In this document: piece after piece, positions 1-6,412 of the stretch | How the letters are laid out: the number at the start of each line of letters is the position of its first letter | How positions within the stretch are numbered: position 1 is the first letter of the stretch | Virus record (IMG/VR): IMGVR_UViG_2671180411_000014 | Source of the DNA: a virus | Lineage: Duplodnaviria > Heunggongvirae > Uroviricota > Caudoviricetes | DNA length: 6,412 nucleotides | Direction: 5' to 3' (one strand) | Made by a program: the position numbers and the translations under genes | Notes under the pieces: generated by a model | What the model saw: the letters and a program-made list of their open reading frames with translations, nothing else | What the model was told of the DNA's origin: nothing | The model's database searches: none

Positions 1-64
1 AACATAACGAAACATAATTCCCCATTATACGCGCGTATAATGGGGAATTATGTTTCGTTATGTT
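1..64. other. telRL: Perfect 64-bp palindrome; candidate protelomerase target site (telRL/tos-like) with N15-type telO core
   Basis: Checked base by base: position i pairs with 65-i for all 32 pairs, symmetry centre between 32 and 33. The central CCCCATTATACGCGCGTATAATGGGG (20-45) contains the 22-bp telO core CCATTATACGCGCGTATAATGG as I recall it for N15 and phiKO2. The palindrome starts at base 1, so it may extend beyond the window. Confidence 0.72.
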
Positions 65-207
65 CTTGATTAGTGTTCTTATTTAGTGTAATATTCTCAT
101 TTTGTGTACTGCTTTATTTAACATTTAGCTTTAATTCTTTATTTGTGTTCTTTATTATGTTTGCATCATTACTTAGTTTTTGTGTTCTTTATTTGTGTTC
201 TTGTATT
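61..207 (+). repeat. Array of short direct iterons (core TGTTCTT, extended TT(T/A)GTGTTCTT) next to the palindrome; candidate accessory protein-binding sites
   Basis: Exact TGTTCTT at 61-67, 74-80, 146-152, 183-189 and 196-202. Extended copies: ttagtgttctt 70-80, tttgtgttcttt 142-153, 179-190, tttgtgttcttg 192-203; degenerate tttagtgta 82-90 and tttgtgtact 101-110. The first copy lies inside the right arm of the palindrome, so the array runs on from the telomere site. Region is very AT-rich and non-coding. Confidence 0.5.
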
Positions 208-384
208 GGTAAGGTTGGGAGAACTAATAGAGAAAACGTATCTCATTGATGATTCTTATCATGTTTCCCTAGTTTTACATGATTTCCTTTCTTCAAAAAA
301 TATAATAAATATCAATTACTTATGATTATGTTGTTGTTCGTTTTATGCATTTCGGGAGGGGAACAAAAGATGATTTAGCTTAAA

Positions 385-490
385 AATTCTCCTTTGCGTT
401 TTTCTTTTTGCTTTGCCTTTTTCATGCAAATTTGCTAGAAATAAGCAAAGATTTAATTATTAAGCAAAGTTACAAGCTGGAGATGACAGT
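385..490 (+). promoter_or_regulatory. sopAB promoter/operator region with four perfect CTTTGC hexamers (SopA autoregulation motif) and a Shine-Dalgarno
   Basis: CTTTGC at 392-397 and 411-416; its reverse complement GCAAAG at 445-450 and 464-469; near-copies TTTTGC 406-411 and ATTTGC 430-435. F-plasmid SopA is known to bind CTTTGC repeats in its own promoter. Tentative sigma70 elements: -35 TTGCTA 432-437, 16-bp spacer, -10 TAATTA 454-459. GGAG at 479-482 sits 8 nt before the ATG at 491. Confidence 0.5.
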
Positions 491-1657
491 ATGTCTTTGA
501 AAAAGCTATTGCAAGATTGTGTTACGAGAGGTCAAGAAATGACCCAAGCAATTGCTATCGCTCAATTCGGTGATGATAGTCCTGAAGCTCGGCGTATCAC
601 CCGCCGATGGGGTATTACTGAAGTAGCAGATTTAATTGGTGTAACTCCTCAAGCAATTAGAGATGCTGAGAAGAGCGGGCGTTTACCTGCACCTGACTTT
701 GAAATGAGAGGAAGAATTGAACGTCGTGCTGGTTATACCATAGATCAAATCAACAGTATGCGAGCAGTTTTTGGCAACCCAAACCAACGACCACAAGATA
801 AAAACCCTGTTGTTCTTGCCGTTATGTCACACAAAGGCGGCGTTTATAAAACATCGTCTGCGGTACATCAAGCTCAATGGTTAGCATTACAAGGTCATCG
901 TGTTCTTTTGGTTGAAGGTAACGATCCTCAAGGTACAGCCTCTATGTATCACGGTTATGTTCCTGATTTACATATCCATGCCGAGGATACTTTACTGCCA
1001 TTTTACTTAGGAGAACGCGATAACGCTGAATATGCTATAAAGCCAACATGTTGGCCTGGGCTAGACATTATCCCTAGCTGCCTAGCTTTACATCGTATAG
1101 AAACAGATCTCATGCAATATCATGCTCAGGGTAAATTGCCTCATCCTCCACACCTTATGCTGCGCGCAGCTATTGAATCAGTTTGGGATAACTACGATGT
1201 TATCGTTATAGATAGTGCTCCGAACCTCGGTACAGGAACCATTAACGTTGTTTGTGCCGCTGACGTTATTGTTGTTGCTACACCTGCAGAATTATTTGAT
1301 TACGCTTCTGTTCTACAGTTTTTCACAATGCTTCTCGATCTATTGGAAAGCGTTGACCTAGGTGGATTTGAGCCAACCGTTCGCTTACTTCTGACTAAAT
1401 ATAGTCTCACTACAGGGAATCAATCACGATGGATGGAAGAACAAATAAGAAATACATGGGGATCAATGGTATTACGTCAGGTTGTACGCGTTACCGATGA
1501 AGTAGGTAAAGGCCAGATAAAAATGAGAACAGTATTTGAACAAGCAGCAAACCAACGTTCAACATTGAATGCATGGAGAAATGCTGTTTCTATATGGGAC
1601 CCTGTTTGCAGAGAAATTTTTGATGATCTAATAAAACCTCGCTGGGAGAACGAATAA
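491..1657 (+). CDS. sopA: Type Ia partition ATPase SopA/ParA (388 aa)
   Basis: ATG start with upstream GGAG. Translation aligns along its full length with F-plasmid SopA as I remember it (AIAIAQF.DDSPEAR.ITRRW, GRLP.PD, deviant Walker A KGGVYKTS, LLVEGNDPQGTASMYHG, PTCWPGLDIIPSCLALHRIET, VIVIDSAPNLG.GTINVVCAADV, GFEP.VR.LLTKYS, GKGQI.MRTVFEQA, LIKPRWE). Same length as F SopA. Confidence 0.95.
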   Translation: MSLKKLLQDCVTRGQEMTQAIAIAQFGDDSPEARRITRRWGITEVADLIGVTPQAIRDAEKSGRLPAPDFEMRGRIERRAGYTIDQINSMRAVFGNPNQRPQDKNPVVLAVMSHKGGVYKTSSAVHQAQWLALQGHRVLLVEGNDPQGTASMYHGYVPDLHIHAEDTLLPFYLGERDNAEYAIKPTCWPGLDIIPSCLALHRIETDLMQYHAQGKLPHPPHLMLRAAIESVWDNYDVIVIDSAPNLGTGTINVVCAADVIVVATPAELFDYASVLQFFTMLLDLLESVDLGGFEPTVRLLLTKYSLTTGNQSRWMEEQIRNTWGSMVLRQVVRVTDEVGKGQIKMRTVFEQAANQRSTLNAWRNAVSIWDPVCREIFDDLIKPRWENE

Positions 1658-2622
1658 TGAAACAGCGCTCTCTTCTAAAAAATGCTCCAGATATTAATCG
1701 CATTATGAGTAATAATCATCATGCCCCTGAACATCAGCCCGTATCACCTATGGTTGGTGATTTAAAACGTCAACTGAGTTCATTAACCGGTAACAGCATA
1801 ACTTTGCCAGTATGCGGACGTAATGTTAACTTTAAGTTAGAGACAATTCCCGCAGATAAAGTTGAAATGGCAACAATGGTATGGCTAGGTAATGAACGCG
1901 ATCAAGATTTATTAAATGAATCCTCTCTAGCCGATTTAATCCCATCTTTTCTAACGTCTGGACAACAAAATCCAGCTTTCGCCAGAAAAGTATCTGGAAT
2001 CGTTGAAGTCGCTGACGGCTCACGTAGAAGAAAAGCAGCGATATTAACAGGATGTGACTATCGCGTCTTAATTGGTGATCTCGACGATGAACAGATGCAT
2101 TGGTTATCCCAAATTGGTAACGATTATAGGCCTATTAGTGCATACGAAAGAGGAAAGAGATACTTACGCAAGCTAAATGACTTTGATGGTAACGTTAAAG
2201 CATTGGCCGAGGCTGAAAATATAGATAGAAATATTATCACTCGCTGTATTAATACAGCTGGTCTACCAAAAGATATATTAGCTATCTTCAATCATCCAGG
2301 AGAACTGTCAGCTCGTGCTGGAGATTCTTTGTTTAAGATTTACAAAAAAAACATGGCTGCCATGAGCAATGCTGCTCATCATCTTCTGACAATAAAAAAA
2401 AACGGCGAGGATTTAGAAGCTTCACGGATTATACAAATATTATCTGACTCTGTTCTGGTTGGCGACGAGGAAAAAACAAAAGACGAGAAAAAATATGGGG
2501 AAGGGATCACGGCTAGATATAAAGGGAATTTTGTAACTATAAAAATTGATAGCCGCAAAATATCTAAAGAAATACTAAGCAAAATTGAGTTGTTACTAGA
2601 GGAACAATCTACTGATAATTAA
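1657..2622 (+). CDS. sopB: Partition centromere-binding protein SopB/ParB (321 aa)
   Basis: ATG overlaps the sopA stop (TAATG, 1655-1659). Translation carries conserved ParB/SopB blocks: ITLPVCGR.V.F.LE, W.GNERDQ.LL, LIPSFL.TGQQ.PAF.R.VSG..E.ADGSRRRKAA, DYRVL.G.LDDEQM, GNDYRP.SAYERG.RY, AEAENI.R.IITRCINTA.LPK, F.HPGELSAR.GD.L. Confidence 0.93.
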   Translation: MKQRSLLKNAPDINRIMSNNHHAPEHQPVSPMVGDLKRQLSSLTGNSITLPVCGRNVNFKLETIPADKVEMATMVWLGNERDQDLLNESSLADLIPSFLTSGQQNPAFARKVSGIVEVADGSRRRKAAILTGCDYRVLIGDLDDEQMHWLSQIGNDYRPISAYERGKRYLRKLNDFDGNVKALAEAENIDRNIITRCINTAGLPKDILAIFNHPGELSARAGDSLFKIYKKNMAAMSNAAHHLLTIKKNGEDLEASRIIQILSDSVLVGDEEKTKDEKKYGEGITARYKGNFVTIKIDSRKISKEILSKIELLLEEQSTDN

Positions 2623-2626
2623 GAAT

Positions 2627-2649
2627 TATCCCCTGCATTGCAGGGGATA
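2627..2649. terminator. Inverted repeat (10-bp arms, 3-nt spacer) between convergent sopB and tfa; probable bidirectional intrinsic terminator
   Basis: TATCCCCTGC (2627-2636) / att / GCAGGGGATA (2640-2649). It sits exactly between the sopB stop (2620-2622) and the tfa stop (2655-2657). It is followed by a T-rich stretch on the + strand (tattgattt) and by an A/T-rich stretch on the - strand. The flanking runs are not pure T tracts, so this is moderate confidence. Confidence 0.5.
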
Positions 2650-2654
2650 TTGAT

Positions 2655-3230
2655 TTATGGTTGACTTGGCCACTCGATATCTGGAGATAGTGATGTATCA
2701 ACACGATTCAACAACACCCGATATGTCTTCCATGCGGCCAGTAACGATTTCTCTTCCTCCGTTGCGATCTCAAGATCTACCGCATCCTGAAGCGGCGCAA
2801 TATGCTCACTGGCTACCTGCATCAGGCTGTTTTTTGTTTCTTCCGCCTCCCGGATCCGGAATAGTTTTTCTGCTTCTGCATCTTTCACCCAGGCTGTGCC
2901 GTTCCACTTCTGATATTCCCCTTCCGGCGATAACCAGGTAACATTTTCCGGTAACGGACCGAGTTCAGAAATAAATAACGCGTCCCCTGATGCCACGTCA
3001 TAAACTGTTTTACCCCGATGGTCTTCAACAAGATGCCACGATGCATCATCACTGTTGAAAACAGCCACGAAGCCAGCCGGAATATCTGGCGGTGCAATAT
3101 CGGTACTGTTTGCTGGCAGACCTGTATGAGGCGGAATGTATGCGTCACCTTCACCAATAAATTCATTAGTTCCGGCCAGCAGATTATAAATTTTTATGGT
3201 CCGTGGTTGTTCACTCATTCTGAATGCCAT
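2655..3230 (-). CDS. tfa: Tail fiber assembly protein, lambdoid Tfa family (191 aa)
   Basis: Translation [54 protein letters not shown]... matches the E. coli lambdoid prophage tail fiber assembly proteins (TfaE/TfaR-like) from memory. The ATG overlaps the stop of the upstream stf by one base (TAATG on the - strand at 3228-3232). Placement directly after a tail fiber gene is canonical. Confidence 0.9.
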
Positions 3231-6200
3231 TATGCAAGCCTCACAATATAGTTAAATGCGATGTTTTTGACGGTGTTTTCCGCGTTACCAGCAGCGTTAA
3301 CGGTGATGGTGTGTCCATGTGAACCAATCGCAACGGAGTGCGTATGAGCACCAATACCGACAGTATGCGCGTGTGCACCTGCAGATGCTGCTGTGCCGGA
3401 CAGTGAGTGGCTATGATTACCATCTGTACTGGTATTAGCTAACCACCCCGTAGACATACCTACTGAGCCTTGTACACCCCAGGTATTTTGACCTGAGCTT
3501 GTATAACCATATTGATAAGTATCTTTAAAAACACTGGGGTTAAATCGACGGCCATCTCTATGGCTGTGATTACCAGCTGCATTCGTGCTGCCACTTAAAC
3601 TATGGGTATGCGCACCAGTGTTATTCGTGGATTTAGTGCCGTAATCAAACGACGATGTGGTTTTCGTCCCCAAATCCGTACTGGATGCGCTGGCGCTGTG
3701 GGTATGCGATTTAATGCCGTCCTGTTCCTGAGACAATACGGCCCGACCACTGGCAGGTTTGCCCTTAATCGTCCAGCCACGCATATCAGGGATCACGCCT
3801 GACGGATAAGCCGCTGCAAGTTTCGGGTATGCAGATTTGTCAAAAGCCTGCCCCTGCATCAGGGCATAGCCAGACGGAACGGTATCTGATGGCCACGGGA
3901 TTGGTGCGCCAGGCGGATAAAACTGCTCTGATGGCGTATAGAGTGAATAAACTGTACCGTCCGTTAACCCTTCCGGCTTATTAGCAGAATATGCTGGTGA
4001 CGTATGAATCGTCACGCTGGCATTACTGGTATAATCCCATTGAATATTTACACCAGTCGCATAATTTCCGATTGCAACGTAAATATCGTAAGTATCACCA
4101 GATGTATTAACCCAGGCAAAATTTGTAAACCCTGTCAATGTGCGCTGCCATAAAGCACCAGTAATCCCCTTCGGATTACCATTACCTGCACGTAAAACAA
4201 GTTCAGATATACCTGCCTGTTGAGGTGACCCCACGTTAAATCCAGCGCCACCAATCAACGTAATTGAAACAACAGAACTCGCCTGTGGCATGGTTACCGT
4301 TGCTAATTTGAACCAACCAGCACCACCGCTGAATGACATTGTTGTTGAGTTAAGCGTACCAATATCTTTCGGCGTCAGTGTTATATCCGCTGAAAGCGCC
4401 TTACCATTCACCTTACGGGCAGAAGGTACCCGACCATTCGCATTGTCATTAGCTGCTTTCACTGCTTTCGGTGTCGCAGCAAGCGTTTCAGATGTGCTGT
4501 TGGTTGCACTACTGAGCTGGACAATTCCTTTTTGTGCTGTCGTAGCGTCCTGTGCGGTGTATTTCCCGTTAGCCAGGTCATACGCGGCCTTAACGGCTTT
4601 TGGCGTTGCCGCCTGTGACTCGGAAGTGCTGTTAGTCGCACTGCTGAGCTGAACTATCCCTTTCTGTGCTGTCGTTGCATCCTGTGCGGTGTATTTCCCG
4701 TTAGCCAGGTCATACGCGGCCTTAACGGCTTTTGGCGTTGCCGCCTGTGACTCGGAAGTGCTGTTGGTCGCACTGCTGAGCTGTACTATCCCCTTTTTCG
4801 TCGTGCTCGCATCCTCAAGCGCCACGGCGGATGCAATATCCTCTGCCCGTTTTGCTGCTGTCTCGGCGCGCGTTGCCGCGGATTCCGCCGTACTTTTGCT
4901 CTGTGCTGCCGCTGCCGCACTGCCAGCAGCCTCTGTCGCCTTCGTGGATGCCGTCGTGGCGCTGCCCCTCGCTGCTGACGCCTGTCTGGTCGCCTCATCT
5001 TTTGAAGCAGACGCAGATGATGCCGATGACGCCGCCGAACTGGCGGACGATGCGGCAGCCGTTTTTGAGGATTCTGCGCTGGTTTCCGACGCTTTCGCGT
5101 TCGTTTCGGATGTCTTCGCTGCGGAAGCAGACCTCGCTGCTGCCGTGGCCTGCTCAGTGNNNNNNNNNNNNNNNNNNNNNNNNNNNNNNNNNNNNNNNNN
5201 NNNNNNNNNNNNNNNNNNNNNNNNNNNNNNNNNNNNNNNNNNNNNNNNNNNNNNNNNNNNNNNNNNNNNNNNNNNNNNNNNNNNNNNNNNNNNNNNNNNN
5301 NNNNNNNNNNNNNNNNNNNNNNNNNNNNNNNNNNNNNNNNNNNNNNNNNNNNNNNNNNNNNNNNNNNNNNNNNNNNNNNNNNNNNNNNNNNNNNNNNNNN
5401 NNNNNNNNNNNNNNNNNNNNNNNNNNNNCCTCGCTGCTGACGCCTGTCTGGTCGCCTCATCTTTTGAAGCAGACGCAGATGATGCCGATGACGCCGCCGA
5501 ACTGGCGGACGATGCGGCAGCCGTTTTTGAGGATTCTGCGCTGGTTTCCGACGCTTTCGCGTTCGTTTCGGATGTCTTCGCTGCGGAAGCAGACCTCGCT
5601 GCTGCGCTGGCCTGTTCAGTGGCTTCGCCAGCCTTCGTTGTGGCTGTTGAAGCGGATGATGCGGCGCTTTCTGCCGATTTTCCGGCGGCGGTGGCACTGA
5701 CTGCTGCCTCCTCTGCCTTAATGGACGCCTCACGGGCCGATGATGCAGCTGCTGTCTCAGAGTCTGCCGCAGCTGAGGCGCTCTGTTCCGCTGCCGTTTC
5801 AGAAGACTTAGCATTCGTCTCGGACGTTTTTGCCGCCTTCACGGAATTTCCTGCCGCCGTTGCCGAGGAGGCTGCACTGCTGGCGCTTGTGGAGGCGTTC
5901 GTTTCTGATGATTTTGCCGCCTCTTTGGAGGCCGCCGCATCTCTGGCTGAAGTGGCGGCTTCTGACGCTTTCGTTGTCGCAGTGGATGCAGAAGTGGCTG
6001 CTGATTTTTGTGACGCTGCAGCATTCGTTTCTGACGTTTTCGCCGCACCGGCACTGGTGGCCGCCGCGCTTTTTGAGGACTCTGCAGCGGCAGCACTTTT
6101 TGATGCTTCAGTGGCCTTTGTTGATGCCGTTCCTGCGCTGGAAGACGCCTCCTGAGCCGAAGTCGCGGCCTGTCCGGCTGACGTGCTGGCTGCACGCGCT

Positions 6201-6412
6201 GAGCCTGCAGCATCAGTCGCATGGGTTGCCGCCTCACGGGCAGATGTGCCGGCATCACTGGCTGACTTCTTCGCGGCTGCCGTGTTCTGTGCCACCGCGG
6301 ACGCGTTACGCGCCACCTCTTCCACCATCAGTTCAAAACGGCGCAGAGCCTCCGGACGGGCATCATCCTCCGTCATGGCACCGAGAAAATCATTCAGCGT
6401 ACCGGGTCGGGA
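3230..6412 (-). CDS. stf: Side tail fiber protein, lambdoid Stf family; partial, 5' end lies beyond the window end; contains a 269-nt N gap
   Basis: Stop TAA at 3230-3232 (- strand). The frame stays open from the ATG at 6376 up to the window edge: codons upstream of that Met translate [21 protein letters not shown], which matches an internal segment of lambdoid Stf proteins, so the Met at 6376 is internal. Ala/Ser/Thr-rich repetitive shaft, [14 protein letters not shown] repeats, and a His-rich C-terminal tip ([33 protein letters not shown]) ending [11 protein letters not shown]. Confidence 0.9.
4417..4812. repeat. In-frame tandem repeat within stf: 3 copies of a 132-bp (44-aa) unit
   Basis: Units 4549-4680 and 4681-4812 are near-identical (few mismatches); unit 4417-4548 is a diverged copy. 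They encode [44 protein letters not shown] twice, then a variant [33 protein letters not shown]. Confidence 0.8.
4967..5621. repeat. Large direct repeat within stf flanking the N gap (offset 462 bp, in frame)
   Basis: 4967-5159 is almost identical to 5429-5621 (about 3 mismatches in 193 bp). The offset of 462 bp is 154 codons. Both sides encode [64 protein letters not shown]. Confidence 0.75.
5160..5428. other. Run of 269 N (assembly gap or masked sequence) inside the stf coding region
   Basis: Directly visible. It is bounded on both sides by copies of the same repeat, consistent with repeat-induced assembly ambiguity. Confidence 0.99.

Follow-up and report, generated by a model that had tools for sequence, protein, structure and literature searches.

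A probable hairpin telomere (telR) of an N15-like linear plasmid-prophage at the start of an Escherichia phage record

The 6,412-nt stretch of DNA analysed here (IMG/VR record IMGVR_UViG_2671180411_000014, hereafter the window) is very probably the telR end of an N15-like (Ravinvirus-type) linear plasmid-prophage of Escherichia, with the closed tip of the hairpin at positions 32/33 and bases 1–32 representing wrap-around sequence. It begins with a perfect palindrome whose core is identical to that of the telRL sites of N15 and phiKO2, the palindrome is followed by sop genes with homology and synteny to those of N15, and bases 1–11 are a fold-back of the flanking sequence. A physical hairpin, its cleavage by a protelomerase and the presence of telN in the replicon to which the window belongs are predicted from these comparisons. 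N15-type telomere phages, their telRL/telO site and the chemistry of TelN have been characterised over 25 years.

The palindrome and its telO-type core

Bases 1–32 and 33–64 were identified by a repeat finder as the arms of a perfect inverted repeat, 100% complementary and with no spacer (AACATAACGAAACATAATTCCCCATTATACGC/GCGTATAATGGGGAATTATGTTTCGTTATGTT, in which the slash marks the dyad centre), as had been claimed in the original prediction of a 64-bp palindrome centred on TATACGC/GCGTATA at 32/33. As single-stranded DNA, the 64-mer folded into a single hairpin of -30.8 kcal/mol, cf. -5.7 ± 2.1 kcal/mol for shuffled sequences (z = -12.3), and the arithmetic expectation for a chance palindrome of this kind in 6.4 kb was ~6412 x 4^-32, or ~3e-16. 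The palindrome is genuine yet ordinary. Its symmetry reaches exactly base 1, and therefore the size of 64 bp was fixed by the edge of the window and is not a property of the site; the equivalent symmetry in related records either ran onward for kilobases or ended at ±21 bp from the centre. The putative wrap-around copy (1–32) is the exact reverse complement of 33–64, the segment on the + strand that alignments identified as the likely telR half-site proper, comprising half of the core (33–43), a spacer and a variant outer R3-type box at ~49–60.

The core itself, CCATTATACGCGCGTATAATGG at 22–43 (CCATTATACGC/GCGTATAATGG about the dyad centre), has a length of 22 bp, which we take to be the definition of telO, and was identical at 22/22 positions to both the annotated N15 repeat_region and the phiKO2 telRL. 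In the N15 record (NC_001901), this repeat_region (24775–24830) is a 56-bp inverted repeat annotated as the cut site for prophage formation ('cut at 24802/3') and lies between the protelomerase gene and the ParA/ParB-like genes 28 and 27. The phiKO2 site (NC_005857) is annotated as 'telRL; binding site' and has the same gene arrangement as in N15. The site in PY54, found as an inverted repeat with 25-nt arms upstream of the tel gene, matched the core of the window at 16/22 positions, and the central TACGCGCGTA was the sole part of the core held in common, in keeping with the 10-bp centre described as common to the PY54 and N15 sites (PMC3540006). The core of the TelN site has also been quoted as 28 bp (PMC12624138). 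Aligned on the dyad centre, the outer arms of the window were identical to those of N15 at 21/32 and 26/32 positions and to those of phiKO2 at 21/32 and 24/32, with the phiKO2 arms diverging outside the central 28 bp. Thus, the predicted identity of the core with telO of N15 and phiKO2, and the departure of the outer arms from N15 telRL, both held on alignment to the annotated sites, and a mismatch of the core with a verified telO, which would have spoken against the prediction, was not what these alignments gave. On these alignments, bases 1–64 are an N15-type protelomerase target site, with a core identical to the defined N15/phiKO2 site and a CGCGCG dyad centre. A scan of GTDB representatives for the core recovered a single species, Pseudocitrobacter vendiensis, a result that says little on prevalence because this set holds one genome per species.

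Genes beside the telomere

Along the + strand, tel was followed by sopA and sopB, both reading away from it, and then by tfa and stf on the opposite strand. This is the layout that had been predicted (stf, tfa, then the convergent sopB and sopA beside tel), viewed from the opposite end. The sopA gene (491–1657, + strand) encodes a partition ATPase of 388 aa with Pfam domains AAA_31 and CbiA and 93% identity to N15 gp28, while sopB (1657–2622, + strand) encodes a centromere-binding partition protein of 321 aa with the domain SoPB_HTH and 73% identity to N15 gp27. The tail-fibre assembly gene tfa (2655–3230, - strand, 191 aa) was identified by Caudo_TAP (E = 4.8e-44), and stf (3230–6412, - strand), which encodes a lambda-type side tail fibre and has its 5' end beyond the window, by Phage_fiber_2, Collar and phage_tail_N, the last through profile positions 93–134 alone (its last third). 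The order of tel, sopA, sopB and tail-fibre genes is as in N15 and is syntenic with phiKO2 too. By homology and gene order, the placement of F-type sopAB beside telR, with oppositely oriented tail genes beyond it, is an N15-like plasmid-prophage arrangement, which together with the identity of the core supports the original assignment to an N15-type linear plasmid-prophage.

The exact SopB protein was indexed in 1474 blocks of a public collection, in which the contigs that bear it were mostly 2–10 kb, the size class of the window. The stf region matched lambdoid phages and chromosomal prophages at 94–98%, and parts of the tfa–stf region recurred among complete E. coli genomes, with matches in 5188/5426 and a median of 3 places per genome. 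The window thus ends, within stf, in sequence where short-read contigs typically break. The region past sopB (2655–6412) is a swap zone, occupied in the window by tfa and stf of the lambda type, with up to 98% identity to chromosomal lambdoid prophages. In relatives (loci L002, L014, L017 and L019), the same zone contained an additional macro-domain gene, the effector gene EspS (in pEA8_3 of E. albertii), a recombinase or a tail fibre with Peptidase_S74.

Two smaller features accompany the sop genes. The convergent sopB and tfa are separated by a GC-rich stem-loop (2627–2649) with the appearance of a bidirectional terminator, and a putative terminator is annotated at the equivalent place in N15. 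Just upstream of sopA, at 392–469, there are four CTTTGC hexamers, two per strand, so that 4/5 copies in the window fall within 78 bp; the count over the whole window was at chance level and it is the clustering alone that stands out. SopA of the F plasmid binds CTTTGC repeats in its own promoter, and the cluster is likely to be the sop promoter-operator. A scan of 1–2800 for sigma-70 sites gave fewer promoter-like sequences than were found in shuffled sequences, and no promoter is therefore named. The F-type sopC/N15 centromere palindrome (TGGGACCNNGGTCCCA) had one match in the window, with 3 mismatches, which is chance level.

The 6.4-kb window contained no protelomerase gene, repA or telL, and membership of such a replicon therefore rests on the relatives. 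In the prophage form, the protelomerase gene would sit at the other telomere, ~46 kb away. The cB/immB immunity region and cos of an N15-like prophage would likewise fall beyond the 6.4 kb covered here. In two contigs that encode an identical SopB (loci L022 and L028), the protelomerase lies across the site and telN is followed by a gene of RepA size (1331 aa).

Mirrored records, intact sites and the origin of bases 1–32

Once N15 DNA has entered the cell and circularised through cos, the protelomerase cleaves it at telRL; the ends so produced are staggered and self-complementary, and are folded back and sealed as telL and telR hairpins (PMC10612081, PMC2847241). The prophage is a linear plasmid, and its replication through the hairpins yields palindromic telLL and telRR, which are resolved by TelN (PMC2847241, PMC12624138), the substrates of which are telRL, telRR and telLL (PMC12624138, PMC2847241). 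TelN that stays bound shields the hairpin from SbcCD (PMC12624138). By analogy, the genome represented by the window would begin at base 33, and bases 1–32 would be the complementary strand read back around the hairpin for 32 nt. A TelN-type protelomerase, encoded beside the other telomere, would bind the tel site as a dimer, make staggered cuts around the dyad centre and rejoin each strand to its complement, giving the telL and telR hairpins. The replicated telomere would be a perfect telRR palindrome, i.e. the sequence of window 1–64 extended outwards, which the enzyme would resolve again, and sopAB beside telR would partition the linear plasmid.

Terminal inverse duplications are a recognised assembly signature of hairpin telomeres in Borrelia (bioRxiv 10.1101/2025.07.18.665644). 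In the window, the inverted duplication extends precisely to the first base, and its flank repeats the adjoining genome in reverse complement. A total of eight plasmid records matched the window from base 1 (CP088810.1, NZ_CP126957.1, NZ_CP104505.1, NZ_CP014491.1, CP088562.1, NZ_LT906558.1, CP088558.1 and CP088738.1; loci L003 and L007–L013). The gene maps of all eight were mirrors, in which tfa and leftward sopB and sopA were followed by rightward sopA and sopB and again tfa. Mirror symmetry was measured in seven of these, as the core in CP014491.1 could not be placed exactly; it was exact for 1.3 to >4 kb from the centre in 6/8 records, while CP088562.1 had a kb-scale mirror offset by a 1-base slip. 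These records, mostly labelled 'circular', were 50–81 kb in size, with one fragment of 11 kb, cf. a unit length of ~46–48 kb. Judged from their symmetry and gene maps, the 50–81-kb 'complete circular' plasmid records and the 11-kb fragment are fold-back misassemblies of a ~46–48-kb linear plasmid-prophage, mirrored at telR. Searching with the SopB protein gave a similar picture, in that eight of ten places with an identical SopB among the matches listed, which were those on the longest contigs, were mirrors with perfect arms of 3.4–8.4 kb, including metagenome contigs named 'k141', in MEGAHIT style, and 'scaffold'. The phage record YDC107_1 (CP025712.1) is a mirror at telL, with two protelomerase genes reading away from each other, and its second protelomerase copy is split into fragments annotated 'protelomerase domain protein'.

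It is quite unlikely that the palindrome was copied from a replicated telRR junction, in a head-to-head dimer or unresolved replication intermediate, and not from the hairpin of a monomer; such a source would involve the same N15-type telomere biology. Replication of N15 does yield duplicated palindromic telomeres, and under limiting TelN, tail-to-tail dimers are left unresolved (PMC2847241, PMC12624138). Mirror contigs were present in seemingly short-read metagenome assemblies, and hairpins are reported to block ligation of Illumina adapters (bioRxiv 10.1101/2025.07.18.665644). The two sources are identical by construction and inseparable by sequence, but full dimers would be ~93 kb; the mirror records of 50–81 kb fall short of this, and assembly wrap-around therefore fits better than stable dimers. 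We kept the replicated junction as a minor rival because the hairpin wrap-arounds of Borrelia were without Illumina coverage (bioRxiv 10.1101/2025.07.18.665644), and the wrap-around reads in short-read data may come from replicated telRR junctions instead of from the hairpin itself.

Wrap-around at a monomer hairpin, the reading that we prefer, was compared with the structure of intact sites in relatives that carry the protelomerase gene. Unit-length records of ~46–48 kb (pAH01-1, pEA8_3, pS159-3, pRHBSTW-00124_4 and pZ1323HEC0355-3; loci L002 and L014–L017) aligned to the window by BLAST from base 12 onward only, and had the protelomerase gene directly across the site. The contigs of loci L022 and L028 had a protelomerase-side arrangement like that of the unit-length records, and the neighbouring gene in both encoded the Pfam TelK_N, muzzle, catalytic and stirrup domains. 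These seven telN-adjacent relatives were either 92–99% identical to the window over bases 12–490 or encoded an identical SopB. Perfect arms at their sites were 21 nt in four (L002, L014, L016 and L017), 12 and 22 nt in L022 and L028, and 7 nt in pS159-3 (L015), a record with apparent sequence errors in the core; arms of 21 nt were likewise found in the IMG/VR loci L042 and L057. In the unit-length relatives closest to the window, perfect dyad symmetry at the intact telRL spans 42 bp, corresponding to window 12–53. Beyond it, the telN-side flank of the relatives (…TTCT[A/G]AA[A/G]ATCAG[C/A]ACATAATT…), with …AAAATCAGC at the place of window 1–11, differed from the letters of the window, and the corresponding wrap-around letters on the telL side would be …GATCAGCACATAATT[C/T]CCCATTATACGC/GCG… Window 1–11 (AACATAACGAA) instead corresponds, in reverse complement, to the sop-side flank at 54–64 and not to the flank of the partner telomere. 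The protelomerase of pEA8_3 was 77% identical to N15 TelN by BLASTP, with the enzymes of close relatives at 77–78%, and 73–79% identical to the N15 and Klebsiella-phage enzymes by tblastn, and that of PY54 was 43% identical to the protelomerase of the relatives of the window. In locus L022 (GCA_964019885.1, CAXHUB010000001.1, 3,767,069–3,788,034), the protelomerase, tel site and sopAB lie inside a 3.8-Mb contig, and this element is either a mis-join of plasmid-prophage and chromosome or an unusual integrated copy.

The IMG/VR collection was scanned for the 22-bp core, and 37 loci were recovered. The flanks differed between the two sides in 13 of these, with perfect arms of 11–29 nt (11 in N15). 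In a further 14, the perfect palindrome stopped exactly at the end of the locus, after 11, 18, 21, 21, 22, 29, 29, 32, 34, 35, 51, 99, 255 or 654 nt. Five loci were kb-scale mirrors, and the remaining five comprised two mirrors broken by mismatches and three sites <33 nt from the locus end in which symmetry was lost early. Among the 37 core loci, no intact site approached 32 nt per arm, the longest being 29 nt. One of the loci, L064 (IMGVR_UViG_2706794686_000011), is a whole contig of 14,588 nt with the same first base as the window and the same 32-nt wrap-around; it was identical to the window over 1–3810 and diverged only inside stf. The occurrence of the same 32-nt wrap-around in the window and in this independent contig points to an effect of the assembler, and we speculate that a de Bruijn assembler that stopped at a self-complementary 64-mer (k = 63 or 64) would leave a read-through of 32 nt. 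No entry in the phage, plasmid or complete E. coli genome collections was 100% identical to the window over its full length; the best matches to parts of it were CP088810.1 (100% over 1–490) and L064 in IMG/VR (100% over 1–3810). Base 1 is probably the end of a contig, or else a cut within a longer mirror assembly, and both cases would imply a fold-back.

These results also bear on the proposal that bases 1–64 are an uncut telRL, a natural 64-bp palindrome with telN just upstream in the phage or circular form, which we consider very improbable. The core and the central 42 bp are exactly what an intact site would show, and the window has no sequence upstream of base 1. However, none of the seven telN-adjacent relatives exceeded 22 nt per arm, the longest intact arm in the IMG/VR survey was 29 nt, the telN-side flank was unlike window 1–11, and the end of a natural palindrome would have to coincide with the first base of both the window and L064. 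A natural 64-bp telRL was therefore rejected on the arm lengths of relatives (≤22 nt) and of intact IMG/VR sites (≤29 nt) and on the mismatch of the flank at 1–11. Least probable of all, at a level that we regard as negligible, was a palindrome with no telomere role (a terminator, a cruciform of a circular plasmid, chance or a sequencing artefact): a terminator scan did mark 9–56 as a stem-loop followed by T-rich sequence, but this reading was refuted by the alignments to the N15/phiKO2 sites, given a core identical at 22/22 positions to telomere resolution sites that were defined by experiment, the N15-type neighbours and a chance probability of ~1e-16. The original prediction had offered, as one alternative, that bases 1–32 are a read-through of the hairpin, and it is this alternative that is favoured by the differing telN-side flanks, the mirrored structure of the records that match from base 1 and the identical start of L064.

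Known relatives and the outer box of telR

The element in the window is already known, and public records of plasmids, phages and metagenomes contain it at 99–100% identity. Over window 1–490 it was 100% identical to pB16EC0268-3 (CP088810.1), and over 12–2920 it was 99.7% identical to pEA8_3 of E. albertii (NZ_CP117561.1); pAH01-1 (NZ_CP055252.1) is a catalogued N15-like plasmid-prophage of the E. coli/E. albertii group. The databased relatives in these two species differ from the window chiefly in the tail-fibre/cargo region past sopB, where stf C-termini vary in addition to the macro-domain, EspS and recombinase genes. Escherichia and Shigella are known to harbour N15-like phage-plasmids in which lambda-like tail genes vary (bioRxiv 10.1101/2025.09.12.675607), and telomere phages have been reported to be widespread (PMC12042878). 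N15 telRL, the site of TelN, is like the window in its 22-bp core, its dyad centre and the position of tel beside sopA–sopB and then tail-fibre genes, whereas the lambda-type tfa/stf module of the window takes the place of gene 26 of N15, which is umuD-like, and of the N15 tail fibre, and outside the core the DNA of N15 was too diverged from the window for megablast. Of the more distant systems, phiKO2 with TelK shares the identical core and PY54, with its pal site and Tel, the central part only; both form prophages that are hairpin-ended linear plasmids. The linear replicons of Borrelia show the same perfect inverted duplication reaching the end of contigs, with lengths that vary arbitrarily between 68 bp and 18 kb (bioRxiv 10.1101/2025.07.18.665644), but differ in organism, resolvase (ResT) and telomere sequence, and the likeness is one of assembly signature and not of homologous elements. 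PhiR46_1 (PV340565.1) has a record that ends at this same site, annotated as 'telR site', and unlike the window it has a canonical R3 box. Its protelomerase gene (203–2101) is annotated merely as 'hypothetical protein', though the telR site is annotated.

Outer L3 and R3 boxes have been described for the N15 site (PMC12624138, citing Deneke 2000, 2002), and we looked for the corresponding inverted-repeat boxes at ~14–28 bp from the dyad centre. The outer R3-type box of telR in the window (~49–60) was ATGTTTCGTTAT, cf. GTGTGCTGATAT in N15. The canonical box, ATGTGCTGAT[A/T]T, was present in the telL arm of relatives and in both arms of N15 and PhiR46_1. Relative to the telL box of the relatives and N15 (ATCAGCACAT), the telR box differed at 4/5 positions, from TCAGC to ACGAA. 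Because the two boxes differ in this way (L002, L014, L016, L017, L042 and L057), intact telRL is asymmetric beyond ±21 bp. The variant box recurred in IMG/VR (L029, L041, L042, L057 and L064), with a further variant in L056. The protelomerases of pEA8_3 (variant box) and PhiR46_1 (canonical telR box) were 97.5% identical; near-identical enzymes thus serve both boxes, and the variant is therefore probably tolerated by the protelomerase.

Degenerate L1/L2 and R1/R2 copies, and a natural target of ~310 bp, have been described for N15 (PMC12624138). In the window, a TGTGTTCTT-like motif was present in five direct copies at 59–202, all on the + strand (direct-repeat family D1), out of 7 matches in the whole window, cf. 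1.63 expected, and TTGTGTACTGCT at 101–112 within the same segment resembles the canonical outer box. We infer that the repeats at 59–202 are candidate degenerate accessory protelomerase-binding sites of the R1/R2 type.

The biological novelty of these results is small, and their practical value lies in the curation of linear-replicon records. A perfect palindrome with a telO core that reaches the end of a contig can be taken as the mark of a hairpin telomere, and the true end is obtained by trimming at the dyad centre, which is 32/33 here. Only two points are mildly new, namely the asymmetry of the outer box and how many 'circular' records were misassembled. It is conceivable, albeit doubtful, that the diverged telR box causes the two telomeres to be recognised or protected unequally, provided that the outer box does have a part in TelN binding or in the protection of the ends, or that the TGTGTTCTT repeats at 59–202 substitute for it. 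If either were true, these elements would show, as a natural experiment, what portion of the 56-bp site and of the ~310 bp around it is required by a protelomerase.
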